This document shows positions 528 to 62,953 of a DNA stretch of 64,000 bases, piece by piece. The notes under the pieces are model-generated. The model saw nothing but the letters and a program-made list of their open reading frames with translations, ran no database searches and was not told the DNA's origin. Within the stretch, counting starts at the first letter, position 1. Every line of letters starts with the position of its first letter. A program made the position numbers and the translations under genes. The DNA comes from Escherichia coli. GTDB taxonomy: Bacteria > Pseudomonadota > Gammaproteobacteria > Enterobacterales > Enterobacteriaceae. The stretch lies in assembly GCF_013122565.1 (NCBI RefSeq), contig NZ_CP053258.1; one strand, given 5' to 3'.

Positions 528-586
528 AGAACACCCTGATATGTTAAATAACAAATTTCAACATCTTAAACTAGTTAACAATAACG

Positions 587-1057
587 CTATTTTATTTTCA
601 ATCCACAAGAGAATAAATAATTTAAATATTTATTATTTGCATCGACTAAAAACGGACAAATATCGCAACTAACTTCACTTAGTAAAAATTCCTTATCCAA
701 TATTATGAATTCATGACAAAGCAATATATCAATTAAACCTGCTATATCTTCATTTATATTTGCATGGTTTGTTATAACATCGTTTTTGAATATTATAAGT
801 GCATATTGCCCGACAAAAGACATATATAAAAAGGCAATACCTTCTTGCAAAACAACTTCTAATGAAAAACAAACATCACTGTTTAATTCAGTGTTATCTC
901 TTACATCAAACCGTGAACTCAACTCAGTAATTACGCCTTTATATTTTAATGAGTTATATTTCTCCATCACAAATTCATAATTGGGAAACGCCATATCGAG
1001 ATAAGCATTTTTAATAGCCTGATCAAAGACGATTTTATTTTTCATTATAATCCACAA
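587..1057 (-). CDS. Hypothetical protein (156 aa), no recognisable family, AT-rich
   Basis: ORF track; same strand and short spacers (about 60-75 nt) to neighbouring ORFs; no TM segments evident. Confidence 0.45.
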   Translation of the reverse strand: MWIIMKNKIVFDQAIKNAYLDMAFPNYEFVMEKYNSLKYKGVITELSSRFDVRDNTELNSDVCFSLEVVLQEGIAFLYMSFVGQYALIIFKNDVITNHANINEDIAGLIDILLCHEFIILDKEFLLSEVSCDICPFLVDANNKYLNYLFSCGLKIK

Positions 1058-1133
1058 TATTTATTTCCATAATTAACATTTGCAATACTGTTATTAAAAC
1101 ACATAATTATGGTCAATTTACTAGCATTCCACA

Positions 1134-1538
1134 TTAATGCACATCATGCCCGTTGTTATTTCTAAACATAAAAGATACTGCATGTTCCATTTTATCACTC
1201 AAGGGATAATTATCTTTTGTTGCATATGTAAAATCACTTACTTTGGTTATTAAATTTTTTATAGCATCATCAAGATGCTCAGGAACCAAGGACTCAATAT
1301 CTTCAAACTCACAACCAAGATCAATTATATCTATTAACTCTTTGTCACAACTATTTTTGTGCAAAAGCCTGGAAATAAAAGGTCTAAAAACAAGTAGTTC
1401 AGATTCATCTATAGTTATTGAACCTTCTTTTAGTGAATGTAAAATTCCTGAAAGAAGGATAGCCATAAATTTATCTATATATTTATTATCGATGGTACAA
1501 ACTAACTGCATGATATTCCTTATAACTTTCGCAACCAT
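1134..1538 (-). CDS. Hypothetical protein (134 aa), acidic, AT-rich
   Basis: ORF track; start may be the second Met (about 1511), which removes the overlap with the upstream ORF. Confidence 0.45.
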   Translation of the reverse strand: MVAKVIRNIMQLVCTIDNKYIDKFMAILLSGILHSLKEGSITIDESELLVFRPFISRLLHKNSCDKELIDIIDLGCEFEDIESLVPEHLDDAIKNLITKVSDFTYATKDNYPLSDKMEHAVSFMFRNNNGHDVH

Positions 1539-2218
1539 TGCTTGACGTTGAACAGTTCAAAAACCATCACAACAATTGACCAAAAGAAACAGACAAAATC
1601 AAAGTAAAGCATTAATGCCCCTACAATGGCACAATGCTTCAACGTCCAAGGTTCATCGCTATATAATTTGCGCACATAAAGCTTCAGTGCATTTATTTTT
1701 CTTAAGGCAATGCATGACCATAATAACACAAAGAGGAAACTCATTATCCAAAGATACAAACTATTTAACAAAACGAAATTAGAAACAAAAGAAATACTCC
1801 AGCCGACACCAATCAGTAATAAAACATACCACCGCGATGCCGTATTGATATTAAAACTCAAAGCCAACAGTATACTAAGGAGGAACATTGCCCCACCGAT
1901 GCCAAATAATAACCTGACAAACGCGATCGAAAAAAGGCTTGCTATGAGTATTGCGAATAGACTGATTATGGAAAAATAAATAATACATATTGCTAATGTG
2001 TTTATTTTCTCAATTTTCGTCCTTAATCCGTATCCAAAAATAAGAAGCAAGACAACGGCTAAAAAGAATGGTGCGGTATGTTGATGCGTTGCGGTAATGT
2101 TATAATAATCTGCTATCCATGCAAATCCTGCAGTTACCCATAAACCAACCGCTGTTATCAACCAGATACAGGCCATCATTCTGGTCATTAAAGGCTGTTT
2201 TTTCATTAAACCTGTCAT
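1520..2218 (-). CDS. BI-1/YccA-family multi-pass inner membrane protein paralog (about 233 aa from Met52 of the track ORF)
   Basis: ORF 1520..2371; the N-terminal 44 aa of the track ORF overlap the 3' end of the upstream gene in another frame, so the true start is taken as an internal ATG (2216-2218, GGAAA RBS; alternative ATG 2237-2239 two nt after the upstream stop). C-terminal motif CAIVGALMLYFDF matches the ybhL C-terminus. Confidence 0.55.
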   Translation of the reverse strand: MTGLMKKQPLMTRMMACIWLITAVGLWVTAGFAWIADYYNITATHQHTAPFFLAVVLLLIFGYGLRTKIEKINTLAICIIYFSIISLFAILIASLFSIAFVRLLFGIGGAMFLLSILLALSFNINTASRWYVLLLIGVGWSISFVSNFVLLNSLYLWIMSFLFVLLWSCIALRKINALKLYVRKLYSDEPWTLKHCAIVGALMLYFDFVCFFWSIVVMVFELFNVKQWLRKL

Positions 2219-2241
2219 TGTGATTTTTCCATAAATCATGA

Positions 2242-2955
2242 CTACCACTGAAACCGTGAATGCCTTTGCCAGACAAGCGTTATCGCTATTGCTGCAAGAA
2301 TCCCAAAGAAGCCGATAAAATAGTAATAGAGTGTTAATGCACCTGTAACAGCGCAACGAACCGGACTCCACAACTCTTCGCTATGGCATTTTCCTGCCAG
2401 TTCAAGGAGCTTATTTCGTCCATGCGAGATAATGCCTGACCATAACACAATCATTAAGCAACTTATTACCCAAACGAGTCGTTCACTCATTAATGCGGCA
2501 TTCACGATGATCACCAGGGCCAACCCTGTCAACGTCATCATAATGATAAAACGATGAGAACCAGGATCAACATTAAATAATAAACCGGCCAGCATACTAA
2601 TTAAAAACATCGCGCCCGCAATGCTGAACACAAGGATAATGGCAGGTACAGGAACTAAACTAGCAACGACAATCGCCACCAAAGAGAGTAAAAACAGATA
2701 TATTACGCCTGCGATGGTGGCATTTATCTTGTTGATATACTTACTTAAGCCATACATACAAAGTAATAATAACCCTATGGCGACATACATAGGTGGTGAA
2801 TCATATTTGGTTGCCGTAATTTCGAGATACTTAGCTCCCCAGGCCAGTCCTGCGGTTGCCACCAAACCTAAAGCGGTAATGAGCCATACACCGTTTAATA
2901 TTCTGGCTTCGTGCTGAAATTCATTAGCTATGTTATTTGCTGAGCGCGATTTCAT
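2242..2955 (-). CDS. BI-1/YccA-family inner membrane protein, 237 aa (candidate ybhM ortholog)
   Basis: ORF track; hydrophobic multi-TM protein; C-terminal CAVTGALTLYYYF motif shared with ybhL; length equals my recollection of K-12 YbhM but the assignment is unverified. Confidence 0.6.
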   Translation of the reverse strand: MKSRSANNIANEFQHEARILNGVWLITALGLVATAGLAWGAKYLEITATKYDSPPMYVAIGLLLLCMYGLSKYINKINATIAGVIYLFLLSLVAIVVASLVPVPAIILVFSIAGAMFLISMLAGLLFNVDPGSHRFIIMMTLTGLALVIIVNAALMSERLVWVISCLMIVLWSGIISHGRNKLLELAGKCHSEELWSPVRCAVTGALTLYYYFIGFFGILAAIAITLVWQRHSRFQW

Positions 2956-3024
2956 TATTTTTATATCCTTAAATTAAATATCAATATCTATTCCAATTAA
3001 CGTAATAAAACTCGTCAATTCGCA

Positions 3025-3729
3025 CTACCACACTAAACCATTAATAAAGTCAAGAACTGTTACAGTAATTCTAAAGAGGACGCTTAAAATACTAAAATAG
3101 AGTGTTATTGCCCCAAGAACTATACAGCGAAGAGAACCTGAAATTTCAGAGGTGTCGGCAACACGGATCAAATCTTCCAGTGTTGTTGCTTCACAGGCAG
3201 CCGTAATGCCCCAGATAAAGACAGTCAAAATACTCGCTAACCACACGGAAAAACTGCTGGTAAGGATCAGGTTAACAACAAAAGCAATACTCAAACCACA
3301 GAAAATATATAAATATAACTGTCTGACTGGTGGGATAACCCTATTACTACAACAGCAAATCAGCGCCATTGCGGCAAACATCCCTCCCGTAATTCCCATT
3401 ACCGTCGCTATGCTCGAAAAGGTAAAAAGGCTGGCGAAGAGAAAGCCAATAAGCAGGATTATTAGCAGATAGACCAGACATGCGCCTGATGCATTGAGTC
3501 TTTTCAGGGCGTAGTTTAACCAAAGACCACCTATTATCAGTGCAGCCAAAGCGAAGACAAACGCGCCTGGAGACTTTCGTGACGTAACCCAATGCAAGTG
3601 CTGAAATATCCAGGCACAGCCTGCCGTAGCCCATACTCCAGCAGCTGTTAACCACCAAATGAGAAGCAGCATTTTGCTGAGCGAAGCACTTTTTTGCTGT
3701 AATTGAGTAGCAGTGGATTGTCTGTTCAA
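3025..3729 (-). CDS. BI-1/YccA-family inner membrane protein paralog, 234 aa
   Basis: ORF track; multi-TM; C-terminal CIVLGAITLYFSIL motif; sits between ybhL and the 237-aa paralog. Confidence 0.6.
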   Translation of the reverse strand: MNRQSTATQLQQKSASLSKMLLLIWWLTAAGVWATAGCAWIFQHLHWVTSRKSPGAFVFALAALIIGGLWLNYALKRLNASGACLVYLLIILLIGFLFASLFTFSSIATVMGITGGMFAAMALICCCSNRVIPPVRQLYLYIFCGLSIAFVVNLILTSSFSVWLASILTVFIWGITAACEATTLEDLIRVADTSEISGSLRCIVLGAITLYFSILSVLFRITVTVLDFINGLVW

Positions 3730-3872: not shown

Positions 3873-4577
3873 TTAACGGCGGTTGCCGAAGATCCGCAGC
3901 AACATCAGGAACAGGTTGATGAAGTCCAGATACAAGGTTAACGCGCCAAGAATGGAATATTTGCGCAGGTTCGACGTGTCGCGGGTATCAATCTGCTCAC
4001 CCATATTTTTCAATTTCTGAGTGTCATACGCCGTCAATCCGACAAAGACAATCACGCCGATGTAGGTAACTGCCCACATCAATGCTTCGCTTTTCAGCCA
4101 GAAGTTGACCAGCGATGCCAGCACAATGCCGATTAACGCCATAAACAGCATATTGCCAAAGCCGCTTAGATCGCGCTTCGTGGTGTAACCATACAGGCTC
4201 ATTGCGCCGAACATCCCGGCAGTAACGACGAAAGTACTGGCGATAGAAGCAGCGGTATAGACAATGAAAATACTGGAAAGCGTAAGACCCGTCAGCGCCG
4301 AATAAAGCATAAAGAGCATCGTCGTTACACCTGCGCTCAGCTTTTGAATCATCGCTGATAACACAATAACCAATGCTAATTGCGCGATGATCAGACCGAT
4401 TAAAAAGACACGGTTAGTGAACAACAGCTCCATCACGGCCGCGGAATTAGCCGCATACCAGGCAACAAATGCGGTCAGCAACAAGCCAACGGTCATCCAG
4501 CCATAGACTTGCGCCATATAAGTTTGCAAGCCAGCCCGGGGTTGTACAATTGAATCAGAACGTGGGAATCTGTCCAT
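3873..4577 (-). CDS. ybhL: Inner membrane protein YbhL (BI-1 family), 234 aa from MDRFPRS
   Basis: ORF 3873..4658 with internal start; recognised sequence and position next to moaE. Confidence 0.85.
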   Translation of the reverse strand: MDRFPRSDSIVQPRAGLQTYMAQVYGWMTVGLLLTAFVAWYAANSAAVMELLFTNRVFLIGLIIAQLALVIVLSAMIQKLSAGVTTMLFMLYSALTGLTLSSIFIVYTAASIASTFVVTAGMFGAMSLYGYTTKRDLSGFGNMLFMALIGIVLASLVNFWLKSEALMWAVTYIGVIVFVGLTAYDTQKLKNMGEQIDTRDTSNLRKYSILGALTLYLDFINLFLMLLRIFGNRR

Positions 4578-4676
4578 GACGATCTCCTGAAGATATAAGG
4601 AATATCTTAAGGATACTGCAAAATGATGAGGCTGTGCATCGACGCAGCGTAAACGCATGTACTGAGCGGTGAAATT

Positions 4677-5413: not shown

Positions 5414-5891
5414 CCGCTTCCACCTTAAAGTCACCCGACTTTCCGCCGCTCTTCGCCAGCAAACGTACCGGACCAATCACCATATCTTTTTGCACCGCTT
5501 TACACATGTCATAAATGGTCAGCGCCGCCACGGAGGCCGCAGTTAACGCTTCCATTTCGACACCGGTTTTCCCGGTCAGGCGGCATAAGGTTTCTATACG
5601 TACCCGATTGTGCTCCGGCTCAGCCTGTAAATTGACTTCAACTTTGCTGAGCATCAGCGGGTGACACAGCGGGATCAGATCCCACGTGCGTTTTGCCGCC
5701 TGAATACCGGCAATACGCGCAGTGGCAAATACGTCGCCTTTGTGGTGGCGACCATCAATAATCATCGCCAGCGTCTCGCTGCGCATGGTGACAAAGGCTT
5801 CGGCGCGCGCTTCACGCACGGTTTCTGCTTTGGCGGAGACATCCACCATGTGCGCTTCGCCAGCGGCGTTGATATGGGTCAGTTGCGACAT
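5406..5891 (-). CDS. moaC: Cyclic pyranopterin monophosphate synthase MoaC
   Basis: 161-aa ORF, recognised. Confidence 0.93.
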
Positions 5892-5893
5892 AC

Positions 5894-6406
5894 TTATTTC
5901 TTCAAATGTGGATGGAAATTACACGGACGCGTACGGGCATCCAGCTGCGGCGCGATGATATTTTCCCATGCGGTACGGCACGCTTTGGTCGAACCCGGCA
6001 TGGCAAAAATCAGCGTTTTGTTAGCGACGCCCGCTACCGCACGAGATTGTAACGTGGAAGTGCCAATCTCTTCGAACGACAACATCCGGAACACTTCACC
6101 AAAACCTTCCACTTCACGGTCGAACAACGGCAGCAGCGCTTCAGGAGCCTGATCACCTTCCGTCAGGCCAGTACCACCCGTAATCAATACCACTTGTACA
6201 TCGTCGCTGGCGATCCACGCAGATACCTGAGCGCGAATAGCGTAGCGGTTTTCTTTCACAATGGCTTTATCGACAACGTGATGGCCCGCTTCTTGCGCCG
6301 AATCGCGCAAATAGTGACCGGAGGTATCGTCTTCTTCACCGCGCCGATTAGAAACCGTAAGAATAGCAATACGGGTCGGGATAAATTCAGTGCTTACCTG
6401 ACTCAT
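5894..6406 (-). CDS. moaB: Molybdenum cofactor biosynthesis protein MoaB
   Basis: 170-aa ORF, recognised. Confidence 0.93.
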
Positions 6407-7753: not shown

Positions 7754-8722
<969 letters not shown>

Positions 8723-8913: not shown

Positions 8914-10935
8914 TTACGATGCGGCAATAAACAACTCACGCAACTGATGCAACTGGTCACGAATTTGCGCCGCTTCTTCGAACTCCAGATTCTGCGCGTG
9001 TTGCATCATCAACCCTTCCAGTTCATGGATCTTCTGCTGCAACGCTTTAGGCGACATATCCATCGGCACATTATCCGGCTCAACAATCGGTCGCGATTTT
9101 ACTCTGCCCTTCGCTTTGGTTTTGGCGATGTTCTGCCCCAGCGCCAGGATATCGACCACTTTCTTGTTCAAGCCTTGCGGCGTAATGCCGTGTTCCTCGT
9201 TGTACTTCTGCTGTTTCTCGCGGCGACGTTCGGTTTCGCCAATCGCTTTCGCCATTGATGGGGTGATCTTATCGCCGTAGAGAATCGCTTTACCGTTAAC
9301 GTTACGTGCCGCACGACCAATGGTCTGGATCAACGAACGTTCGGAACGCAGGAAGCCTTCTTTGTCAGCGTCGAGGATCGCCACCAGCGACACTTCCGGC
9401 ATATCCAGACCTTCGCGCAGTAAGTTGATCCCTACCAGCACGTCGAACTCACCCAGACGCAAGTCGCGGATGATTTCCATACGCTCGACGGTGTCGATAT
9501 CCGAGTGAAGATAACGCACGCGCTCGCCATGTTCTTCAAGATATTCCGTGAGATCTTCCGCCATTCGCTTGGTCAGTGTGGTGACCAGCACGCGTTCGTT
9601 AATTGCCGCTCGCTGACGAATCTCCGAAAGAAGATCATCAACCTGTGTCGCCACCGGCCGCACTTCAATTATCGGGTCAAGCAATCCGGTTGGACGCACC
9701 ACCTGATCCACCACATCGCCGCCGGATTTTTCCAGCTCATAATTACCCGGCGTCGCCGAAACATAGATGGTTTGCGGCGCTAATGCTTCGAACTCTTCAA
9801 ATTTCAGCGGACGGTTATCCAGCGCCGATGGCAGGCGGAAGCCGTACTCCACCAGCGTCTCTTTACGCGCCCGGTCACCGCGATACATGCCGCCAATTTG
9901 CGGAATGGTGACGTGAGATTCATCGACGACCAGCAGCCCATCGGCAGGCAGGTAATCAAACAGCGTCGGCGGTGGCTCACCCGGTCCACGACCGGAGAGG
10001 AAGCGCGAGTAGTTTTCAATCCCCGAACAGTAGCCCAGCTCGTTCATCATCTCCAGATCAAACTGGGTACGCTGGGTCAGCCGCTGCTCTTCCAGCAGTT
10101 TGTTGTTTTCCAACAGCACCTTGCGTCTGGCGGCCAGTTCTTCTTTGATCTCCTCCATCGCCTGTACGATGCGCTCACGTGGCGTGACGTAGTGCGTTTT
10201 CGGGTAGATGGTAAAACGTGGAATCGTGGAAATAATCTGCCCGGTTAGCGGGTCAAATAACGACAATCGTTCCACTTCCTCGTCAAACAGTTCCACGCGA
10301 AGTGCAATGTCATCCGATTCTGCCGGGAAGATATCTATCACCTCGCCACGAACGCGGAAAGTACCACGCTGGAATGCCTGATCATTACGAGCGTATTGCA
10401 ACTCCGCCAGTCGGCGCAGGATCGCACGTTGATCGATAATCATGCCGACCGTGAGGTGGAGCATCATCTTGAGATATAAATCAGGGTCGCCCAGACCATA
10501 AATCGCGGAAACAGAGGCCACTACAACCACATCACGCCGCTCCAGCATCGCTTTGGTGGCGGATAAACGCATCTGCTCAATATGTTCGTTAACCGAGGCA
10601 TCTTTCTCAATGAAGGTGTCGGAACTCGGTACATAGGCTTCCGGCTGATAGTAGTCGTAGTAGGAAACGAAATACTCCACCGCGTTTTCCGGGAAGAACT
10701 CTTTCATTTCGCCATAGAGCTGGGCCGCCAGCGTTTTGTTGGGCGCCAGCACCATCGTTGGACGCTGTAGGTCAGCAATGACATTGGCGATGGTGAAGGT
10801 TTTCCCGGAGCCCGTCACGCCAAGTAACGTCTGGTGCGCCAGGCCATCTTCCAGCCCCTCTTCGAGACGTCGAATCGCCTCTGGCTGATCGCCAGAAGGT
10901 TTAAAAGCGGAATTCAGTTTGAACGGTTTACTCAT
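8914..10935 (-). CDS. uvrB: Excinuclease ABC subunit B UvrB
   Basis: 673-aa ORF; [21 protein letters not shown]..., helicase motifs (GVTGSGKT). Confidence 0.96.
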
Positions 10936-22360: not shown

Positions 22361-23413
22361 TCAGGGAAGATAAACTTCACCGGAAAATATTTTTCTGGTC
22401 GTCCGAATAACAGATGCGCGTAACGTCGTGGCATCCTGACCTTCATTACTTAAATGAACGTCGAGCGCACCACTGGGGTGTTCAATATTGATATTGCCAT
22501 ATCCTACAGAAGGGACGATTTGTCGGGTGACGGTGCCTTCCAATGCACAACTACTGGAAATAGCAATAGCACCGGTTATCGCCAGCGCGCGATGGCAAGA
22601 ATGCGGCATAAAATAACGCACATTAATTGCCCCGCCTTTCTGCGCTGGAGAAATAAGCACAGGTTTAGGGATAACCATATTACTGACATCACCTAAGCCC
22701 ATTGCTTTACCCGCTTGTAGACGGATAGATTCAATGCGGGCTAATAATGCTTTGTCGGCATCCAGTTCCGCCGGTAATTCATAACCTGTTTTTCCCAGAT
22801 ATTCAGCCGGAATAATGACGACTGGCATCGCCATATCGATACAGGTCACCGGGACATCGTCAAAATAATCGATCTGATTATCAGTCGGGAAAACTTTTCC
22901 GGTTTTGGTTCCAGCGGCATTCAGGAAAGTGAGCGCAACCGGTGCGGCAGTACCCGGTACGCCGTCAATTCTGGCACTACCCTCGTACTCGACAACACCA
23001 TTTGGCGTTTGCACATCAGCTTCGATGAACGTACCCGTATTGACGTTGCGGATACGTACGCGAGTAACTGGCGAAGTCGCTGCAATCAAACCATTTTCAA
23101 TGGCGAATGCCCCAACACCAGACAGCATATTGCCGCAGTTAGGCGTGGTATCGACACGTTGCTCATGGACGATAACTTGAGCAAACAGATAATCAACATC
23201 AGCACGCGGATCGCTGGAACGGCTAATAATGGCGACTTTACTGGTCAGTGGATTACCGCCGCCAATACCGTCAATTTCCAGATCGTTACCGGAACCCATA
23301 ATTGCCATCAATATTTTATCGCGCTGCGTTTGATCTTCGGGTAAATGTTCCGCTAACAGGAACGCGCCCCTCGAGGTTCCACCTCGCATCATCACGCAGG
23401 GTATTTTTTTCAT
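22361..23413 (-). CDS. ybhH: PrpF-family putative isomerase YbhH
   Basis: 350-aa ORF, recognised. Confidence 0.88.
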   Translation of the reverse strand: MKKIPCVMMRGGTSRGAFLLAEHLPEDQTQRDKILMAIMGSGNDLEIDGIGGGNPLTSKVAIISRSSDPRADVDYLFAQVIVHEQRVDTTPNCGNMLSGVGAFAIENGLIAATSPVTRVRIRNVNTGTFIEADVQTPNGVVEYEGSARIDGVPGTAAPVALTFLNAAGTKTGKVFPTDNQIDYFDDVPVTCIDMAMPVVIIPAEYLGKTGYELPAELDADKALLARIESIRLQAGKAMGLGDVSNMVIPKPVLISPAQKGGAINVRYFMPHSCHRALAITGAIAISSSCALEGTVTRQIVPSVGYGNINIEHPSGALDVHLSNEGQDATTLRASVIRTTRKIFSGEVYLP

Positions 23414-23595
23414 AATAATGCCCTCAATTTAAAAACATAACTTATTGCGATATGGTTACATTAAGGACAAAACCGCACTAATGACTTTATCTTCACGATT
23501 AATTACTTTTTTTCATTAATTTAAGTGATTAAAATGCAGTTAAACGGTTTAAAGCGAAACGCTAAAAGAGAACCTTTCCATTTTCTGGAGTAGTA

Positions 23596-24552
23596 ATGAA
23601 GCATGAATTATCAAGTATGAAGGCATTTGTCACTCTGGCAGAGTCGACTTCATTTAACAACGCCGCCAAATTACTTAACATTACACAACCCGCGTTAACG
23701 CGAAAAATAAAAAAGATGGAAGAAGATTTACATATTCAACTTTTTGAGCGTACAACTCGCAAGGTTACATTAACAACAGCGGGGAAAATGTTGCTTCCTG
23801 AGGCGCGGGAATTAATAAAAAAATTTGATGAAACACTTTTTAATATTCGGGAAATGAATCATTACCATCGTGGTATAGTGACATTAGCGTGTATTCCGAC
23901 CGCCGTGTTCTATTTCTTGCCATTGGCGATCGGCAAATTTAATGAGCTATATCCCAATATTAAAGTGCGGATTCTGGAACAAGGCACGAATAATTGCATG
24001 GAATCGGTGCTGTGCAACGAATCTGATTTTGGCATAAACATGAACAACGTCACAAATTTATCTATCGATTTTACTCCCCTGGTCAACGAGCCATTCGTGC
24101 TGGCCTGTCGGCGTGACCATCCTTTAGCCAAAAAGCAGCTAGTGGAATGGCAGGAGTTAGTCGGTTACAAAATGATTGGCGTACGCTCCTCCAGCGGCAA
24201 CCGATTGTTGATTGAACAAAATTTGGCCGACAAACCCTGGAAACTGGACTGGTTTTACGAAGTGCGCCATCTTTCAACGTCATTAGGACTGGTGGAGGCT
24301 GGACTGGGAATTTCGGCACTACCAAGCCTGGCAATGCCTCATGCGCCCTCTTCTTCTATTATTGGTATCCCCCTGGTAGAACCAGTAATTCGCCGCACAT
24401 TGGGTGTGATTCGCCGTAAAGATGCAGTGCTTTCTCCAGCAGCAGAACGCTTTTTTGCGTTACTTATTAATTTGTGGACTGACGATAAGGATAATCTGTG
24501 GACCAAGATCGTTGAACGTCAGAGACAGACATTACAGGTGATGGGAAAATAA
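23596..24552 (+). CDS. ybhD: LysR-type transcriptional regulator YbhD
   Basis: N-terminal HTH (FVTLAESTSFNNAAKLLNITQPALTRKIKKMEEDL), divergent from ybhH. Confidence 0.88.
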   Translation: MKHELSSMKAFVTLAESTSFNNAAKLLNITQPALTRKIKKMEEDLHIQLFERTTRKVTLTTAGKMLLPEARELIKKFDETLFNIREMNHYHRGIVTLACIPTAVFYFLPLAIGKFNELYPNIKVRILEQGTNNCMESVLCNESDFGINMNNVTNLSIDFTPLVNEPFVLACRRDHPLAKKQLVEWQELVGYKMIGVRSSSGNRLLIEQNLADKPWKLDWFYEVRHLSTSLGLVEAGLGISALPSLAMPHAPSSSIIGIPLVEPVIRRTLGVIRRKDAVLSPAAERFFALLINLWTDDKDNLWTKIVERQRQTLQVMGK

Positions 24553-50913: not shown

Positions 50914-52482
50914 TTAGCGTGCCGGCTGAGTAGTCGTGGAAGACTGCTCAAAGTGATAGCGACCGGTTTTCAGGCTGCTTGGGCCGAGGCGTGCAAACTT
51001 GAACATTAAGAACAATTCTGCCACCAGGAACAGGGTATACAGGCCGCAAATCAGCACCATTGAGAAGATGAGATCGCCTGCGGTCAGTGACGAGTTCGCC
51101 ACAGCTGTCGGCAGCACTTCACCGATAGCCCACGGTTGGCGGCCATATTCAGCCACGAACCAGCCCGCTTCTACAGCAATCCACGGCAGCGGAATACCGT
51201 ACAGCGCGGCGCGCAGCAGCCATTTTTTCTCGCCAATGCGGTTGCGGATGACACTCCAGAAAGAGAGCGCGATGATTGCCAGCAGCAGGAAGCCACACGC
51301 CACCATGATACGGAACGCGAAGTACAGCGGCGCTACACGCGGAATGGAGTCTTTGGTTGCCTGTTGAATCTGAGCTTCAGTCGCATCAGCCACGTTTGGC
51401 GTATAGCGTTTCAGCAGCAGACCGTAACCGAGGTCTTTCTTCATGCTATTGAACTGGTCACGAACCGCCTGGTCGGTAGAACCAGAACGCAGTTGTTCGA
51501 GCAGAGAGTAAGCCTTCATCCCGTTACGAATGCGTTCTTCATGCTGCACCATCAGTTCTTTCAGGCCGATAACTGGAGTATCCACGGAACGCGTTGCAAT
51601 GATGCCCAGCGCGTAAGGGATCTGGATCGCAAATTTGTTCGTCTCCTCTTCCTGATCAGGAATGCCGAACAGAGTAAAGGCAGCAGGCGCAGGTTGCGTT
51701 TCCCACTCGGCTTCAATAGCAGCCAGTTTGGTTTTCTGCACGTCGCCCATTTCGTAACCAGATTCATCACCCAGAACAATAACAGACAGAACGGCAGCCA
51801 TACCGAAGCTGGCAGCGATAGCAAAGGAGCGTTTAGCGAAGGCGAAGTCACGACCTTTCAGCATATACCATGCGCTGATACCGAGGATGAACATCGCGCC
51901 AGTCACATAACCAGACGCTACAGTGTGAACGAATTTCACCTGAGCAACCGGGTTAAGCACCAGCTCGGAGAAGCTCACCATCTCCATACGCATAGTTTCA
52001 AAGTTGAAATCGGACGCGATTGGGTTTTGCATCCAGCCGTTCGCAACCAGAATCCACAGTGCGGACAGGTTTGAACCGAGCGCCACCAGCCAGGTGACAC
52101 ACATATGCTGAACTTTACCCAGACGATCCCAACCGAAGAAGAACAGACCTACAAAGGTGGATTCGAGGAAGAAGGCCATCAGACCTTCGATTGCCAGCGG
52201 CGCACCGAAGATATCCCCTACATAGTGGGAATAGTAAGACCAGTTAGTCCCGAACTGGAACTCCATAGTCAGACCGGTAGCCACACCCAGAGCGAAGTTG
52301 ATACCAAACAACTTGCCCCAGAACTTGGTCATATCTTTATAAATCTGTTTGCCGGAAAGGACGTAGACCGTTTCCATAATGGCCAGCAGGAACGCCATAC
52401 CGAGCGTCAGTGGCACAAAAAGGAAGTGGTACATCGCGGTCAAGGCAAACTGTAAGCGCGACAGTTCGACTATATCTAACAT
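50914..52482 (-). CDS. cydA: Cytochrome bd-I ubiquinol oxidase subunit I CydA, 522 aa
   Basis: ORF 50914..52485, start at second Met ([20 protein letters not shown]). Confidence 0.96.
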
Positions 52483-52819
52483 CATGACTCCTTGCTCATC
52501 GCATGAAGACTCCGAGAGTGAACCCCGTTAGAAAGGGTCACACGCATGCCCCAATACAAAATTATTTGCTCGCCTCTATCGTTGCCATTTCATCAAAAGA
52601 GGAAAAGACAATGATAAAAAAGTTGCAAATATGTTAATGAATAAACCAAATTGATCCCGTAATTATATTACGCCGCAAAATCCTTACAATAAACAGGTTT
52701 TTATTGAGCAAATTTGCATTTTTCGACAGTGATCAATTTATAGCGAAATTGTCACGATCTCACCAATTTGATCTACGACAATTTATCGTGTTTTGCAGAT
52801 TTTTTTCAAGAATTAAAAA

Positions 52820-52833
52820 TTGATTTATATCAA
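52820..52833. promoter_or_regulatory. FNR-consensus palindrome in the cydAB upstream region
   Basis: ttgatttatatcaa = TTGAT-N4-ATCAA exactly, about 340 nt upstream of cydA; the cydAB promoter is known to be FNR/ArcA controlled. Confidence 0.7.
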
Positions 52834-53287
52834 AACTAACCAAATATGTTAATTATGTATAAACCATAGATCATTAGTGATTTTATTGTTAATTTATTGT
52901 GAAATATTTATGCAACACAATTATTACAATGAAAAGGTATAGATAAAAAACCAGTGTTGTATTTAACAGAACCGCCTTATCCACTTTTTATAATACCAAT
53001 TGATTAGAGTAGCCAATTTGTTGCTATTTTACATAACATATTTTTATCAAAGTTAATTGATTGTTGCCTTTATGAGCACCGACCGTAAGCCCGTTATGTT
53101 ATTGTTTCATTGGTAATAATCACTTAAATGTATCGATGGAACAGGTATGACTTAGCGGGAGTGATTGTTTCTGAGTGAACAGGGGCCACTTTTGCCTGAT
53201 AAATGAAAAATGAGCGATTTTTGCAAGTTAGTTTTTCTATAGCCGTGTACGCTCAGCGCCTCGCTTGATTACAATGAGGTTGCTGCT

Positions 53288-54232
53288 ATGAGTCCTGATA
53301 ATATCGGTTCGGCTGTCAATCGCTTCTCAGGTTGGCCATCTAATGATCCTCTAAAAACAGATAAAGAATCAACGACATCACCCGTGACAGTGCAGGTAAT
53401 AAAGATGATTGCCGCCATCCTTGACCCACATCGGATAGTCGTTGGAATCGATACACTTTATACAACGCAGCGCGAAACATTTACCTCAGAGAGTCAACAG
53501 CTCATTGAATCAGCATTGCAAACACTTCATGTGATGAATTTAAATAACCTGGAAACAAATCGCGATGAAGAAGGTCACTATCTGGCTTTTGAATATAACG
53601 TTGACACCTCTGACAGAATAACCGTTTCTGCTTACAATGAAAAAAATCCTGGCTGCTATGGCCAATGTCTTTTAATACAGGATGACGAAACAGACTTATT
53701 CAACCTGATAAAAATTAAAATTTTTGAAGCCAGGCATAATTATGTCGCTCAATTGATGAGCGATCCAGAATTTATGTTCAAATTCAGTTATAGCGCTCAA
53801 CAAAATAGATTAGAACCTCATCTTCTGGTTCCCGCTTATTTCCCTCTAAAAACAAACGAACCGGTTACGCAAGAGGATGTACTGTTACTTTATCGTTTCT
53901 TTAAAATGAATGATGATTTTAACAAATTAACATCAGATGAATACATGAGTATCCTGACACCTCTGATGAAGTGTGAGCGTAGCGTCCACGACAACAACAG
54001 GTATGTGACGGGCAAAGATACCCTTCTTCTGGACTATCCTCCTTCTGGTAACCAGATACATTTCCATGTTTTCCCTGACGAATCAGCAACACTAGTCCTT
54101 TATTTTTCAAACAATGACCTTGAATATTTCGTCTTTGAAAGAGATATTCCGAGCCAGTATCGCTTTTTCAAAATGTTTACCAATCTGGCACTGGTTATAG
54201 ATCAGTTAACCGAAGCCCATAAAATACTTTAA
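53288..54232 (+). CDS. Hypothetical protein (314 aa), AT-rich, no family recognised
   Basis: ORF track; GAGG RBS 7-10 nt upstream; soluble, Ser/Pro/Asn-rich N-terminus. Confidence 0.55.
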   Translation: MSPDNIGSAVNRFSGWPSNDPLKTDKESTTSPVTVQVIKMIAAILDPHRIVVGIDTLYTTQRETFTSESQQLIESALQTLHVMNLNNLETNRDEEGHYLAFEYNVDTSDRITVSAYNEKNPGCYGQCLLIQDDETDLFNLIKIKIFEARHNYVAQLMSDPEFMFKFSYSAQQNRLEPHLLVPAYFPLKTNEPVTQEDVLLLYRFFKMNDDFNKLTSDEYMSILTPLMKCERSVHDNNRYVTGKDTLLLDYPPSGNQIHFHVFPDESATLVLYFSNNDLEYFVFERDIPSQYRFFKMFTNLALVIDQLTEAHKIL

Positions 54233-54312
54233 TTTTCTATATATCCCTATGGCAAATATTGCTAAACAATGCCTGGGGATTAATTTTTATTACTCACGGA
54301 AAGATTTAAATA

Positions 54313-54735
54313 ATGATATCATCTCAGATCTCTTTCAGTACTCTTCCTGTCAATGCAACATACGCTTCAGAGACAACAGTTGACACACAAAAATTCTCTG
54401 ACATCCTCTACTCAGCGGGGTGTTCCCTAAAGGATATGGCTTATCTGAGCAGATGTCTGGCATCAATACACCCGACTATCGCCAAAAACATTTATGAAAC
54501 AGAAAATCTCAGCGATCAAAAATTACTGCATATTGATTGCCGTAGTACAAATGACATCAAGATAAATATCTTTTTTGGTCAGCAACGAGAAGGATTAATT
54601 GAAATTAGTTCTGACACAGTTATTTTTTCGATACTGTCTTCATTGATTGACTCCGCCATTTCTAAATTTCAACATCAAAACCCGGTTAACGGTTCAGTTA
54701 ATCCTGAACTATTGTATGAGGATTATACTGATTAA
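54313..54735 (+). CDS. Hypothetical small acidic protein (140 aa), AT-rich
   Basis: ORF track; 80 nt downstream of the 314-aa ORF on the same strand; Ser-rich N-terminus. Confidence 0.5.
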   Translation: MISSQISFSTLPVNATYASETTVDTQKFSDILYSAGCSLKDMAYLSRCLASIHPTIAKNIYETENLSDQKLLHIDCRSTNDIKINIFFGQQREGLIEISSDTVIFSILSSLIDSAISKFQHQNPVNGSVNPELLYEDYTD

Positions 54736-55281
54736 ATCCACCCTGTCGCGAAAAATGGCCTGCGTTATTGCCAGACGTAATAAAACCTTTGATTAACGTT
54801 ACTCATACTGATAGCACCTTCATGTACCTCTCTTTTTTACGCAAATCAAAAGAGCTAACGAAGGTCATAATTCGCATGAATCATTAACCATTTGTTATTT
54901 TCAACATTACTTTTACATTAAGCAGAAATGAATGGTAGTGAAATTCGACTTAAATTTTATGAAATGCATTTACTTATGGCTAAACCCATATCACTAAAAT
55001 GCAAATTAGAAGTAGATCACAAATATCTCAATACACCAAATCAAGTTAATTTTAAAAATTTAACATTCATGACATTAGTTGACATAACACACTGAATTAA
55101 CATGGAAATTTAAAAACACACTTTAAACAATCATTTCCCGAAAGACATTTTGAAAATAGATCAATTGCAACATTACGGTCAGATAAAGACACTCCTGTGA
55201 TATTAAACCTGTGCCGTTATGAACGGCCATAAATACGACGTGTGTAACTTATTTTACTCTCTGTCTTACAAAGGATTACCC

Positions 55282-55731
55282 ATGAAGAAAGCAACACTTG
55301 TGATTGGCGTTATTGGCGCGGACTGCCATGCAGTAGGCAATAAAGTTCTGGACCGCGTTTTTAGCAACCACGACTTCAGAGTCATTAATCTGGGCGTAAT
55401 GGTCAGCCAGGACGAATATATTGATGCTGCCATTGAAACTGGCGCTGACGCGATTGTCGTCTCCTCTATCTATGGGCATGGCGATATCGACTGTCTGGGC
55501 ATGCGCGAACGCTGCATCGAGCGTGGACTGGGGGACATCCTGCTCTATGTGGGCGGTAACCTGGTGGTAGGAAAACATGACTTCGCTGACGTGGAAAACA
55601 AGTTCAAAGAGATGGGATTTGATCGCGTCTTTGCCCCAAGTCATGACTTAGAAGAGGTTTGTCAGCTGATGGCCCACGATATCAACCAACGTCATGACGT
55701 TGATACTCGCATTCTTGAAGAGGCAATCTGA
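55282..55731 (+). CDS. glmS: Glutamate mutase (methylaspartate mutase) S / sigma subunit, B12-binding, 149 aa
   Basis: ORF 55219..55731 with start at [22 protein letters not shown] (cobalamin-binding DxHxxG-type motif); family assignment from recognised conservation. Confidence 0.85.
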
Positions 55732-59827: not shown

Positions 59828-61198
59828 ATGGCTCGTTCTTTTAAAGTCTTATCGCCAACGGCAATCCTCGGGTATGGATTCCCGGAAGAGAGCTTCCGCA
59901 AAGCGATGGCAGAATCGCCCGATCTGATCGCCGTTGATGCCGGCTCTTCCGATCCAGGCCCCCACTACCTCGGGGCAGGCAAACCGTTTACCGATCGCGC
60001 AGGGGTCAAGCGCGATCTGCGCTATATGATCACCGCAGGCGTGCAAAATAATATACCGGTGGTGATCGGAACGGCTGGCGGTTCTGGTGCCGCACCACAC
60101 CTGGAGTGGTGCCGAGAAATAATTCATGAGATTGCCCGGGAAGAGCACCTCTCGTTCTCGATGGCGTTGATCCCGGCAGACGTTGACAAAGCCATCGTCC
60201 ACCAGGCGCTGGATAACGGCAAAATCACGGCGCTGGATTTTGTCCCGCCGTTAACCCACGACGCGATTGACGAAAGTACGTATATCGTTGCGCAAATGGG
60301 CATCGAACCCTTCCAGCGGGCTCTGAAAGAAGGCGCGCAAGTGGTGCTGGGCGGGCGCGCTTACGACCCGGCCTGCTTTGCTGCGCTCCCGATCATGCAA
60401 GGCTTTGATGAAGGTCTGGCGCTGCATTGTGGGAAAATCCTTGAGTGCGCAGCAATCGCCGCAACGCCCGGCTCAGGCTCTGACTGTGCGATGGGCATCA
60501 TTGATGACAACGGCTTTACGCTGAAGACATTTAATCCGAAGCGTAAATTTACCGAAACGTCAGCAGCTGCACACACACTGTATGAAAAATCCGATCCCTA
60601 CTTCCTGCCAGGACCTGGCGGCGTGTTGAACCTGAAAGGCTGCACATTTAAAGCAGTCAATGACGGCGAAGTCTACGTCAGCGGTTCTAAGCATGAAGAA
60701 ACGCCGTATGCCCTGAAACTGGAAGGTGCACGACGGGTGGGCTTCCGCTGTCTGACCATCGCCGGAACGCGCGACCCGATCATGATCGCCGGGATCGATA
60801 AAATCATCGATGAAGTCAAAATCAGCGTTTCGCGTAACCTGTCGCTTGACGATGACAGCATTCGCATCAATTTCCACCTGTACGGCAAAAACGGGGTGAT
60901 GGGCGACCATGAACCGATGCAAACTACCGGGCATGAGCTGGGGATTGTCCTTGATGTAGTTGCACCGACCCAGGAAATTGCCAACAGCGTTTGCTCGCTG
61001 GTGCGCTCTACCATGCTGCACTACGGCTATGAAAACCGCATCGCTACCGCAGGCAACCTGGCGTTCCCGTTCTCCCCTTCTGATATCCAGGGCGGGCCGG
61101 TATACGAATTTTCCATATATCACCTGATTGAAGCCAACGACGCTCTGCGTTTTGATTTCCATATTGAACAGGTGACGCCAGAAGGAGTTCAGGTATGA
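59828..61198 (+). CDS. DUF1446 (AtuA-like) family protein, function unknown
   Basis: 456-aa ORF; family assignment from memory of conserved N-terminal region; unverified. Confidence 0.55.
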   Translation: MARSFKVLSPTAILGYGFPEESFRKAMAESPDLIAVDAGSSDPGPHYLGAGKPFTDRAGVKRDLRYMITAGVQNNIPVVIGTAGGSGAAPHLEWCREIIHEIAREEHLSFSMALIPADVDKAIVHQALDNGKITALDFVPPLTHDAIDESTYIVAQMGIEPFQRALKEGAQVVLGGRAYDPACFAALPIMQGFDEGLALHCGKILECAAIAATPGSGSDCAMGIIDDNGFTLKTFNPKRKFTETSAAAHTLYEKSDPYFLPGPGGVLNLKGCTFKAVNDGEVYVSGSKHEETPYALKLEGARRVGFRCLTIAGTRDPIMIAGIDKIIDEVKISVSRNLSLDDDSIRINFHLYGKNGVMGDHEPMQTTGHELGIVLDVVAPTQEIANSVCSLVRSTMLHYGYENRIATAGNLAFPFSPSDIQGGPVYEFSIYHLIEANDALRFDFHIEQVTPEGVQV

Positions 61199-61512
61199 AA
61201 CAGTCAATTGTCTCACTGGCGCAAGTCATTCGTTCGAAAAATGCCGGTCCTTACGAACTGGTTTTAGATATTTTATTTAAAACGAAAGAAAACTATGAGC
61301 GAGTTAAATCATCAGGGCAATTAACCCCAGAACTGATTGCGCGCTTATATCATGTTGAACCTGACTTTATTCATCGTATTGTCTGGTTTGATCCTTCTAA
61401 CGCAGTAAAAATCGTCATGCCACGAGATATTATCTCCGGGAATGTAGGTGACAATGATGTCTATGGTGCACAGCAACATGCACCTTTATTAAATATGAGT
61501 TTCGATTTGTAA
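61195..61512 (+). CDS. Small protein (105 aa), likely DUF4387 partner of the DUF1446 protein
   Basis: Start overlaps the upstream stop by 4 nt (ATGA), which is direct evidence of tight gene coupling; family name from memory. Confidence 0.5.
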   Translation: MKQSIVSLAQVIRSKNAGPYELVLDILFKTKENYERVKSSGQLTPELIARLYHVEPDFIHRIVWFDPSNAVKIVMPRDIISGNVGDNDVYGAQQHAPLLNMSFDL

Positions 61513-61672
61513 AAATCCGAACACTTTTAGCCAACTGACATCCCATCACTTATTGCAGTTCAACACTTCAGCTATTTGTAAGGTTGTAATAGCAGGTAGA
61601 TGCCTGAGTCTCTATTCAGGCATCTACTTCTCCTGATTCTGATTTATCGCCGTGCACCTGATGGAGGAAAAA

Positions 61673-62953
61673 ATGAAGAAAATAAGTTTAACCACGATGA
61701 TTCTTTTGGCGCTGGTACTTGGAATGATTATCGGCGTAGTGCTCAATAACACTGCTTCACCGGAAACCGCAAAACTCTATGCGCAAGAAATATCGATATT
61801 CACGACGATTTTCTTACGACTGATAAAAATGATTATCGCTCCGTTAGTGGTCTCTACCCTGGTGGTAGGTATAGCTAAAATGGGCGATGCCAAAGCCCTT
61901 GGTCGTATTTTTTCTAAAACACTTTTTTTATTTATTTGCGCCTCATTGCTGTCAATTGCCTTAGGCTTGATAACAGTAAATTTCTTCATGCCAGGCACAG
62001 GAATTAATTTTGTTGCACACGGAGCCGAAACCACCGGAGTGGTCGCGTCAGAACCCTTTACGCTAAAAGTATTTATTTCGCATGCTTTCCCCACCAGCAT
62101 TGTCGATGCCATGGCGCACAATGAAATTTTGCAAATCGTGGTGTTCTCAATTTTCCTCGGCTGTAGCCTGACGGCGATTGGCGAGAAAGGCAGCGCCATC
62201 GTTCACGCCTTAGATTCGCTGGCACATGCCATGTTAAAGCTCACTGGCTACGTCATGCTCTTCGCTCCCCTGACCGTATTCGCCGCTATTTCAGCATTGA
62301 TTGCTGAACGAGGACTGGCAGTTATGGTGAGCGCCGGGATCTTTATGGGTGAATTTTATTTCACCATGTTGTTACTTTGGGTACTGCTTATCGGTCTGGC
62401 CATCGTTTATGTCGGCCCCTGCATCAGACGCCTGACCCGCGCCCTTTCGGAACCCGCCCTGCTGGCATTTACCACATCCAGTTCTGAAGCGGCTTTTCCG
62501 GGAACGCTTGAAAAACTGGAGCAATTTGGCGTTTCCCCCAAAATTGCCAGCTTTGTCTTACCCATTGGCTACTCATTTAATCTCGTTGGATCAATGGCCT
62601 ACTGCTCCTTCGCCACAGTTTTCATCGCCCAGGCCTGCAATATCCATTTATCCATCGGTGAGCAAATCACCATGCTGTTGATCCTGATGTTGACCTCGAA
62701 AGGAATGGCTGGCGTACCACGCGCCTCAATGGTGGTTATCGCCGCCACGCTCAACCAGTTCAATATTCCGGAAGCAGGGCTGATCTTGCTGATGGGCGTT
62801 GATCCGTTCCTTGATATGGGGCGTTCCGCGACAAACGTCATGAGCAACGCAATGGGCGCTGCGATGGTGAGTCGGTGGGAAGGCGAACATTTCGGCGAGG
62901 GCTGTCGGGGTAAAGCATTAAAACCCAATGAATCGAACGTTGCTCTGCCCTGA
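61673..62953 (+). CDS. Dicarboxylate/amino acid:cation symporter (DAACS, GltP-like), probably glutamate/aspartate uptake
   Basis: ORF 61652..62953; start chosen at ATG 61673 with GGAGG RBS; polytopic membrane protein with GltP-family character. Confidence 0.8.
   Translation: MKKISLTTMILLALVLGMIIGVVLNNTASPETAKLYAQEISIFTTIFLRLIKMIIAPLVVSTLVVGIAKMGDAKALGRIFSKTLFLFICASLLSIALGLITVNFFMPGTGINFVAHGAETTGVVASEPFTLKVFISHAFPTSIVDAMAHNEILQIVVFSIFLGCSLTAIGEKGSAIVHALDSLAHAMLKLTGYVMLFAPLTVFAAISALIAERGLAVMVSAGIFMGEFYFTMLLLWVLLIGLAIVYVGPCIRRLTRALSEPALLAFTTSSSEAAFPGTLEKLEQFGVSPKIASFVLPIGYSFNLVGSMAYCSFATVFIAQACNIHLSIGEQITMLLILMLTSKGMAGVPRASMVVIAATLNQFNIPEAGLILLMGVDPFLDMGRSATNVMSNAMGAAMVSRWEGEHFGEGCRGKALKPNESNVALP

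Follow-up and report, generated by a model that had tools for sequence, protein, structure and literature searches.

Gene Content and Base Composition of the Locus

Two adjacent open reading frames (ORFs) of 314 and 140 amino acids lie on the plus strand of the window, the 64-kb stretch of DNA that was analyzed as a whole. The large gene occupies positions 53288–54232 and the small gene positions 54313–54735. An AT-rich spacer of 80 nt (54233–54312, GC 0.29) separates them. The lengths, coordinates and shared orientation in the original prediction are exact, and the pair lies, as described there, between cydA and the glutamate-fermentation (glm) genes. By position, the large gene corresponds to ECs_0767 (ECs0767) and the small gene to ECs_0766 (ECs0766) of Escherichia coli O157:H7 Sakai, where they lie at 853.7–855.2 kb. 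In O157:H7 strain 7636, the corresponding proteins are WP_001310136.1 (1.7% nucleotide difference) and WP_000613119.1 (3.8% nucleotide difference), respectively. Both genes carry the existing annotation "hypothetical protein".

The stretch is AT-rich and differs from the flanking genes, as had been noted. The large gene has a GC content of 0.388 (GC3 0.365) and the small gene a GC content of 0.369 (GC3 0.333), compared with 0.526 in cydA, 0.529 in glmL, 0.50–0.53 across the glm genes and 0.498 in the whole window. The GC3 of neighboring genes is 0.54–0.64. The spacers flanking the two genes have a GC content of 0.29–0.34. The locus is single copy and occupies one fixed position, and repeats or mobile-element ends are not found above chance.

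The AT-rich region at positions 52483–53187 (GC approximately 0.3) is the upstream regulatory region of cydA and is partly common to E. coli strains without the pair. The homology to these strains stops at position 52858 in the K-12 type (80% identity) and at position 53123 in the strain E10 type (91% identity). The 100 nt directly 5' of the large gene (53188–53287, plus strand) are conserved in alignments and form a candidate promoter/5' UTR. This block is 87% identical to E. albertii and 93% identical to a divergent E. coli strain. These values are higher than those of the coding sequence of the large gene (77% and 92%) and of the 64 nt just 5' of the block (57% and 67%). A GAGG ribosome-binding site lies at positions 53276–53279, 8 nt 5' of the ATG. 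A sigma-70 promoter scan of the conserved region returns no confident match, and promoter and terminator scans of the locus return background levels only.

Aligned with E. albertii, the 80-nt spacer shows 70% identity and 10 gap columns. No terminator-like site is seen in it, so co-transcription of the two genes is possible. A second AT-rich spacer of 546 nt (54736–55281, GC 0.32) lies between the small gene and glmS. Conservation is seen in its distal half (55001–55281), presumably the promoter region of glm, and its proximal half is full of indels. An Rfam search of this spacer region returns no match.

Coding Potential, Selection and Expression

In a test for chance ORFs, 3000 first-order Markov simulations of the 2.8-kb AT-rich block yield a longest ORF of 88 amino acids on average and 200 amino acids at most. 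An ORF of 314 or more amino acids appears in 0 of the 3000 simulations, as do two ORFs of 140 or more amino acids. The large gene has a dN/dS of 0.26–0.52 (about 0.4) and contains zero indels in 945 nt at 23% nucleotide divergence. For comparison, the dN/dS of cydA is approximately 0 and that of glmS and glmL is 0.04–0.28. In the small gene, pN/pS is 0.25 in the core (residues 26–117), 0.89 in the N-terminus and 2.87 in the tail. In the small protein, about 25 N-terminal residues rich in Ser, Thr and Asn precede the conserved core, which is followed by a hypervariable C-terminal tail. Allelic classes within E. coli are only 82–84% identical. Coverage of the large gene reaches at least 80% in 1132 of the 1135 carriers, and every carrier row sampled has it annotated as a CDS. 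The possibility that the ORFs lack conservation in related genomes, which would have counted against the original prediction, is not the case, as both are conserved and selected. Judged from these alignments, the results show both ORFs to be genuine protein-coding genes under moderate purifying selection.

The expression record of the pair is nearly empty. In the supplements of O157 omics papers, the sole entry is the ECs0766 mRNA, for which Sakai shows a log2 change of +1.05 upon cold shift (PMC4057180, Table S1). Neither protein is found in the portions of the O157 proteome tables that were covered. The ECs0766 and ECs0767 locus tags are not mentioned in the literature searched.

Family Searches and Orphan Status

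Neither protein had been assigned to a family from the sequence, and this holds in Pfam, NCBIfam, PADLOC, PHROGs and the PDB, none of which returns a significant match. The best Pfam i-Evalues for the two proteins are 0.31 and 6. NCBIfam returns one 13-bit "kinase" match with an E-value of 0.046, for which the curated cut-off is 221 bits. PADLOC returns 0 matches for either protein, the best PHROGs E-value is 0.084, and single-sequence and profile searches of PDB sequences give best E-values of 0.67–1.7.

Among 5.8 billion clustered protein sequences, 5 clusters match the large protein and 43 match the small protein, all from Escherichia or Shigella. An exhaustive phmmer search of 1.84 billion representatives returns only fragments of the same protein and one low-complexity match. 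This sole "distant" match (P0062) is a low-complexity repeat protein and was rejected as spurious. Two candidate relatives of the small protein at 47–56% identity (P0046 and P0047) were also rejected, as they come from poor assemblies in which the gene calls are frameshifted. Across 100,044 species genomes, a scan finds the genes only in E. albertii, in Escherichia sp. MOD1-EC7003 and in two E. coli MAG contigs that are mis-binned. The relatives are confined to E. coli, Shigella, E. albertii and a cryptic Escherichia clade. The two genes thus have the properties of orphan genes, in that exhaustive searches find homologues only within a narrow taxon, the base composition is atypical of the host genome, and the large gene and the core of the small gene are under purifying selection. 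Neither the HMM searches nor the structure search, which used the model of the large protein, returns a match to a characterized housekeeping family.

Protein Features and Structure Models

The N-terminal sequences of both proteins are correct as first quoted. The small protein (approximately 15.6 kDa) is acidic, with a pI of 4.65, as originally stated; acidity is not a feature of the small protein alone, as the large protein has a pI of 4.82. The large protein contains no transmembrane segment or signal peptide (maximum 19-residue hydropathy 1.25), and neither a Sec signal nor a transmembrane segment is found in the small protein. We infer that both proteins are soluble and acidic, of mixed alpha/beta structure, with disordered Ser/Thr/Asn/Pro-rich N-termini.

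AlphaFold2 models built on shallow alignments have a pLDDT of 44 (large) and 39 (small) and are unreliable. In a Foldseek search of AFDB50, the model of the large protein matches only its own family ("Uncharacterized protein"), and all other matches have a TM-score of 0.2 or less. The models are too poor to exclude a known fold. With low confidence, the small protein is predicted to contain a disordered N-terminus followed by three helices, three strands and one helix. Each half of the large protein, like the small protein, is predicted to contain helices followed by a short antiparallel β-sheet and a long helix. The C-terminal half has five strands in its sheet, and the other two segments have three. 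An internal duplication relating these segments was considered and dropped, as the best BLASTP E-value is 0.05 over 25 residues. Inspection by eye for catalytic motifs (WxxxE, HExxH, DxD and kinase-like) finds none that is convincing. The only WxxxE candidate, at W16, reads WPSND in E. coli and WSSNE in E. albertii and is in the wrong position.

Distribution and Gene Order

The pair is present in 1135 of 5426 complete E. coli genomes (21%), and the glm cluster, as represented by glmE, is present in 1131. Co-occurrence of the pair with glm, which the original prediction had put forward for comparison, is thus near-perfect within E. coli and leaves room for a functional link. The comparison with type III secretion loci has a different outcome. 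The LEE gene escN is present in 697 genomes, which gives a lower bound of at least 438 of the 1135 carriers without it.

E. coli and some E. albertii share the order cydA–large gene–small gene–glm, and the E. albertii loci L014–L016 contain the full island. Because the order is common to both species, the arrangement is most likely older than their split. The alternative is that the block was transferred between E. coli and E. albertii. Clusters of glm genes also exist in Klebsiella, Citrobacter, Salmonella, Yersinia and others (PMC4682846), and these clusters lack the pair because neither gene has a homologue outside Escherichia. The contrast in GC and GC3 and the absence of the pair beside the glm genes of other genera point to an origin of the pair that is separate from that of glm.

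Of the five E. albertii loci examined, all have an inactivated small gene and four have an intact large gene. In L014, the small gene has an in-frame TGA at codon 36 and glm is kept; L015 and L016 have the same 90-amino-acid gene call for the small gene. In L002 and L010, the small gene is truncated at window position 54476. The large gene is intact in L002 even though glm is deleted, and it is frameshifted in the E. albertii type strain. Pseudogenized copies are found in that type strain, in the cryptic-clade strain (with ERIC-like insertions) and in Shigella dysenteriae. As intact large genes occur in E. albertii beside stopped or truncated small genes, the pair is not an obligate two-part system.

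Interpretation of the Gene Pair

The pair sits at the cydA-proximal end of the variable sucD–cydA site. On balance, the locus is best explained as an ancient accessory cassette of foreign-looking composition that is restricted to Escherichia and consists of the two orphan genes ECs0767 and ECs0766. At the level of function, the reading ranked most likely, at somewhat short of even confidence, is that the genes encode two independent, conditionally expressed, cytoplasmic accessory proteins that would be neither secreted nor dedicated to glm. The "cytoplasmic accessory protein" reading is a default and not a demonstration. Judging from AT-richness only, H-NS-type proteins probably silence this DNA under laboratory conditions. 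Such silencing would explain the near-absence of expression data. The three functions proposed in the original prediction (an effector with a partner, a toxin/immunity pair, and regulators of the glm operon) are all weakened to some degree.

Type III secretion is ranked second and is the most specific of the mechanisms considered, although it is unlikely. One or both proteins, especially the small one, would be substrates of the LEE or ETT2 system, with their disordered N-termini read as signals, and a partnership of effector and chaperone would be unnecessary. In residues 2–26 of the small protein, the STNPQ fraction is 0.56 and the Ser fraction 0.20, and there are one Leu and two charged residues. 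In a crude composition test with a small background, this STNPQ fraction equals that of the LEE translocators EspA, EspB and EspD and is above that of all 60 background Sakai proteins. The large protein, at 0.44, is at the 95th percentile of the same background. Composition is a weak predictor by itself, and the N-terminus of the large protein has six charged residues. Also consistent with secretion are the lack of a Sec signal or transmembrane segment in either protein, the AT-rich islet, the fast evolution of both genes, particularly in the tail of the small protein, and the restriction of the pair to a genus that carries LEE and ETT2.

Several results argue against type III secretion. Of the 1135 carriers, at least 438 are without escN. 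E. albertii as a species is LEE-positive; its small gene is nonetheless inactivated in every locus examined, and in the type strain the large gene has a frameshift. Effectors are named explicitly in the curated Sakai record, yet both genes are listed there as hypothetical. Other attaching-effacing pathogens yield no homologue, and neither does any effector family across Pfam, NCBIfam, the PDB and the two large sequence collections, and the covered portions of the O157 proteome tables contain neither protein. The composition of the N-termini resembles that of secretion signals, most strongly in the small protein, so one or both proteins may still be secreted. A narrower proposal, that the 140-amino-acid and possibly the 314-amino-acid protein belong to a new, Escherichia-specific family of type III substrates, is more doubtful again. 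Such a family may be the cargo long sought for the cryptic ETT2 or a conditionally expressed LEE substrate; it would have escaped notice through in vitro silencing of the locus and the lack of relatives in other pathogens.

It is improbable that the ORFs are functionless relics that persist by inertia in silenced DNA and decay slowly. The sparse expression record fits such decay, as do a dN/dS above that of the neighboring genes and the pseudogenes in E. albertii, the cryptic clade and S. dysenteriae. These observations are outweighed by a dN/dS clearly below 1 over a long divergence, the absence of indels from the large gene, and its nearly full coverage and consistent annotation among carriers. 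The conserved proximal upstream region and the constrained core of the small protein also argue against decay.

A two-gene conflict system, whether toxin–antitoxin, toxin–immunity or anti-phage, has a slimmer chance than decay. Two adjacent, co-oriented and rapidly evolving genes in a variable chromosomal hotspot, with divergent allelic classes within E. coli, are what such a system might look like. However, no PADLOC, Pfam, NCBIfam or PHROG match links either protein to a toxin, antitoxin, immunity or defense family, and the single-copy locus has one fixed position, where mobile-element boundaries or repeats are not found. The partners are not co-retained in E. albertii. Relatives are absent from every other genus, which is unusual for defense or toxin–antitoxin modules that spread horizontally.

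Slightly less probable again is a reading in which the two proteins serve the neighboring methylaspartate (glutamate mutase) pathway as accessory regulators or adaptors. The co-occurrence with glmE in E. coli and the order large gene–small gene–glmS, which is also found in E. albertii L014–L016, favor such a role. Against it, neither protein has a DNA-binding or sensor domain detectable in Pfam or NCBIfam, and the island already has its own LysR regulator. The pair has a GC content of 0.37–0.39 as opposed to 0.50–0.53 in glm, and it is separated from glmS by the 546-nt spacer. The glm clusters of Klebsiella, Citrobacter, Salmonella and Yersinia do without such genes (PMC4682846). In E. albertii the two units also come apart, with the large gene kept and glm deleted in L002, and with glm kept and the small gene inactivated in L014.

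The proposal that the 314-amino-acid protein is a secreted effector and the acidic 140-amino-acid protein its dedicated class I chaperone is the least credible, since the size and acidity of the small protein and its position directly 3' of the large gene are set against an hhalign probability of 0.2% with Sakai CesT, the lack of a Pfam chaperone match, a disordered 24-residue N-terminus and an order of elements that differ from the CesT-type secondary-structure pattern used for comparison (in a low-confidence prediction), and a large gene that is intact and constrained in E. albertii with no functional small gene.

Comparison with Known Systems and Significance

Taken as an accessory cassette, the pair most resembles the ORFan genes of AT-rich enterobacterial islets, which look horizontally acquired and are typically silenced by H-NS. 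Like these, it has a GC content far below the genome average and no homologues beyond the genus. It is likewise non-essential, is present in some strains only (21% of complete E. coli genomes), evolves faster than its core neighbors and has little laboratory expression evidence. Unlike them, it is unusually old, positionally stable across E. coli and E. albertii, and under purifying selection.

The non-LEE, non-prophage EHEC effectors of the EspX, EspY, EspL and EspR families, reportedly described by Tobe et al. in 2006, share several features with the pair. They too lie in small AT-rich chromosomal islets, occur also in LEE-negative E. coli, and have Ser/Thr/Asn-rich N-termini without a Sec signal. 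These families differ in having relatives in Salmonella, Shigella or other pathogens, and in that their secretion or translocation has been shown. The pair, in contrast, has no relatives anywhere and is not listed among the Sakai effectors. With class I chaperones such as CesT and SycE, the small protein shares its mass, its pI and its place beside a larger gene whose N-terminus is secretion-signal-like. It differs in having no sequence or profile similarity to them, in its predicted disordered N-terminus and order of elements, and in its loss from E. albertii while the neighboring gene is kept.

Approximately one fifth of complete E. coli genomes carry the pair, including O157:H7 and many human, animal and environmental isolates. 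If either protein is secreted, it would be a lineage-specific addition to Escherichia host interaction. If both are cytoplasmic, the pair would be a clean case of orphans held under selection at one site since before the split of E. coli and E. albertii, and would be useful for studying the persistence of orphan genes. The pair is one among many uncharacterized hypothetical gene pairs of E. coli and would not by itself surprise a specialist.

The sucD–cydA site holds other cargo in other strains. In K-12, this cargo is mngR–mngA–mngB. Strain E10 contains a TPR protein, and E. albertii L002 contains a 258-amino-acid putative outer-membrane protein. Like the pair, all of these sit in the integration-free, variable slot that separates two core operons. 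Their content is unrelated to it, and the pair differs from them in always lying directly against the cydA regulatory region.

Gene Content and Base Composition

The two co-oriented genes lie in a 2.8-kb AT-rich block, with the divergently oriented cydA (50914..52482, minus strand) on one side and glmS (55282..55731) on the other. The large gene (53288..54232, plus strand) encodes 314 amino acids and the small gene (54313..54735, plus strand) encodes 140, and the two are separated by 80 nt. The placement, orientation, lengths and spacing of the original prediction match these ORFs exactly. The predicted AT-richness relative to the flanking core genes is also seen. The large gene has a GC content of 0.388 (GC3 0.365) and the small gene 0.369 (GC3 0.333), compared with 0.526 for cydA, 0.529 for glmL and 0.498 for the entire window. 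The spacers around the pair fall to 0.29–0.34. Acidity had been predicted for the small protein (pI 4.65) and extends to the large protein (pI 4.82). Neither protein contains a hydrophobic segment fitting a signal peptide or membrane helix. A GAGG ribosome-binding site is located 8 nt 5' of the large-gene ATG.

Homology and Structure

The two genes form an authentic orphan cassette that is conserved and specific to Escherichia. Their region corresponds to the sucD-cydA island found in E. coli O157:H7 and in many further E. coli strains. The curated Sakai record lists the large gene as ECs_0767 (314 aa) and the small gene as ECs_0766 (140 aa), both "hypothetical protein"; type III effectors are marked explicitly in this record and these two are not among them. 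A literature search found no mention of the locus tags. Annotations have carried both genes as hypothetical proteins for a long time, so their sequences are not novel; no relatives are known for either protein family.

Sequence and profile searches of Pfam, NCBIfam, PADLOC, PHROGs and PDB gave no significant match for either protein, congruent with the earlier view that neither belongs to a nameable family, and the HMM search proposed with it returned no characterised housekeeping family. Among 5.8 billion clustered protein sequences, all matches are from Escherichia/Shigella (5 clusters for the large protein, 43 for the small). With the large protein as query, an exhaustive phmmer search of 1.84 billion representatives recovered only fragments of that protein and one spurious low-complexity match. 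The AlphaFold2 models are unreliable (pLDDT 44 for the large protein, 39 for the small). Given the empty searches and unreliable models, both proteins are therefore genus-restricted orphans without an assignable fold.

In a scan of 100,044 species, one genome each, the large gene occurs in E. albertii, Escherichia sp. MOD1-EC7003 and two MAG contigs, and in no others. The contigs, labelled Collinsella sp. (4.9 kb) and Citrobacter sp. (8.6 kb), are 97.0% and 97.7% identical to the window over their full length and are therefore mis-binned E. coli DNA.

Coding Potential and Selection

Both ORFs are real genes. Their lengths are far above chance expectation for such AT-rich DNA: when the block was simulated 3000 times under a first-order Markov model, the mean length of the longest ORF was 88 aa (maximum 200), and no run produced an ORF of 314 aa or a pair of ORFs of 140 aa or more. 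In comparisons spanning E. coli alleles and E. albertii, dN/dS for the large gene is 0.26–0.52, with zero indels over 945 nt at nucleotide divergence of up to 23%. In the same comparisons, dN/dS is about 0 for cydA and 0.04–0.28 for glmS/glmL. The core of the small gene (codons 26–117) is constrained, with a pN/pS of 0.25, and its N-terminus is near neutral (0.89). The C-terminal tail (codons 118–140) is hypervariable, with 12 non-synonymous changes to 1 synonymous (pN/pS 2.9, from small numbers).

E. coli and E. albertii share 87% identity over the 100 nt 5' of the large gene. This exceeds both the next 64 nt out (57%) and the coding sequence (77%), and so points to conserved expression signals; consensus scans picked out no clear promoter. 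The sole omics trace found is an increase in ECs0766 mRNA (log2 +1.05) 90 min after a shift from 35 to 14 °C (PMC4057180 Table S1). Neither protein is among the entries listed in O157 proteome tables.

Within E. coli, the small protein forms two allelic classes that are just 81–84% identical and differ mostly in the C-terminal tail. Between the window and E. coli strain AST85, dS is 0.14–0.18 for the pair, roughly two to four times that of its neighbours (cydA 0.076, glmS 0.052, glmL 0.043). Faster mutation of silenced DNA, long-standing alleles or flank recombination may account for this.

Distribution and Phylogenetic History

Of 5426 complete E. coli genomes, 1135 carry the large gene; coverage reaches 80% or more of the gene in 1132 of these carriers, and all sampled entries annotate it as a CDS. 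The comparison with the glm cluster proposed originally gave near-equal counts, with glmE in 1131 of the 5426 genomes; the pair and the methylaspartate cluster therefore act as one block in E. coli. The two are sharply different in base composition. The spacer before glmS (54736–55281) is bipartite: 54736–55000 is indel-rich, with about 120 gap columns against E. albertii and against AST85, and 55001–55281 is conserved (83% and 96%, respectively) and is probably the glm promoter/operator.

In some E. albertii strains (loci L014–L016), the full order cydA-large-small-glmSLE is present. Since this arrangement is common to both species, the cassette has most likely been next to cydA since before they diverged. 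L014 has an intact large gene (64% amino-acid identity, dN/dS 0.42). Its small gene (5869–6273) is interrupted by an in-frame TGA at codon 36 and has diverged at the N-terminus; it is otherwise collinear with the E. coli gene and free of frameshifts. Gene callers place a 90-aa product there, starting at an internal CTG, and the calls in L015 and L016 are identical. This orthologue may be a pseudogene or may be read through. In two other E. albertii loci (L002 and L010, the type strain), a deletion begins inside the small gene (window 54476) and takes out glm; L002 retains an intact large gene, and the type strain has a frameshifted one. The pair is thus not an obligate two-component system.

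In the cryptic-clade MOD1-EC7003 (L011), two strongly palindromic insertions of about 120 bp (8347–8469 and 9091–9250) split the locus, one within the large gene and the other in place of the spacer and the 5' portion of the small gene. The two are 88% identical to each other in inverted orientation, with a fold energy of -44.6 kcal/mol; they resemble ERIC elements and contain the ERIC primer sequence. Shigella dysenteriae contains only fragments.

The sucD-cydA slot (window 52486–55281; L002, L007, L013) is variable and contains unrelated cargo by lineage: the glm island and pair in the window, a TPR protein in the pair-less E. coli E10 (L007 7313–8428) and a 258-aa putative outer-membrane protein in E. 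albertii (L002 11786–12562). No repeats or integrase were found at its boundaries. The cydA upstream regulatory region (52483–53123) has sharply distinct alleles. K-12-type genomes match it only over 359 nt (52500–52858; 80% identity), E. albertii over 52483–52860 (94%) and E10 as far as 53123 (91%). It would thus seem that the cydAB control region is swapped along with the adjoining cargo.

Candidate Functions

The top-ranked reading, which we hold at slightly less than even confidence, is that the two proteins would be independent, conditionally expressed cytoplasmic accessory proteins, probably silenced by H-NS. The pair is a further example of foreign-looking, taxonomically restricted orphan genes, of moderate to low interest unless the proteins are secreted.

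Type III secretion of one or both proteins is unlikely but has compositional evidence in its favor. The small-protein N-terminus (STNPQ fraction 0.56, Ser 0.20, one Leu, two charges) equals those of EspA/B/D and is above 60 of 60 background Sakai proteins; the large-protein N-terminus is at the 95th percentile. If either were secreted, the small protein would be the better candidate on composition, reversing the roles first proposed. However, the proposed comparison with type III loci found the LEE marker escN in only 697 genomes against 1135 for the pair, so at least 438 carriers lack LEE, and other attaching-effacing pathogens contain no homologue. The original effector with a small acidic partner, taken as a chaperone, is one part of this reading and very improbable, as the small protein shows no relation to CesT and the two genes are not co-retained in E. 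albertii.

That the genes are functionless relics is improbable; the large gene has a dN/dS well under 1 and the core of the small gene is constrained. A toxin/immunity system is slightly less probable still: no family matches, including in PADLOC, and co-retention of partners and mobility signatures are absent. Regulation of the glm operon has a marginally lower standing again, since no DNA-binding domain was detected, the composition is unlike that of the glm genes, one E. albertii lineage keeps the large gene after glm loss and another keeps glm without a functional small gene. The glm cluster is also found in Klebsiella, Citrobacter, Enterobacter, Salmonella, Yersinia and Morganella (PMC4682846); with no homologue outside Escherichia, the pair is missing from these clusters.

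Other AT-Rich Stretches

A second AT-rich stretch (window 1–3729, GC 0.29–0.45 per kb) contains two small ORFs (156 and 134 aa) and a tandem array of three paralogous ORFs for membrane proteins (283, 237 and 234 aa). The array is downstream of a BAX-inhibitor/YccA-like gene (3873–4658), and its ORFs have no NCBIfam match. Two further GC dips occur: one in the glm island (61001–62000, 0.42), around the gap that precedes the dicarboxylate symporter gene, and one (23001–24000, 0.41) flanked by a 4-oxalomesaconate tautomerase-like gene and a LysR regulator.
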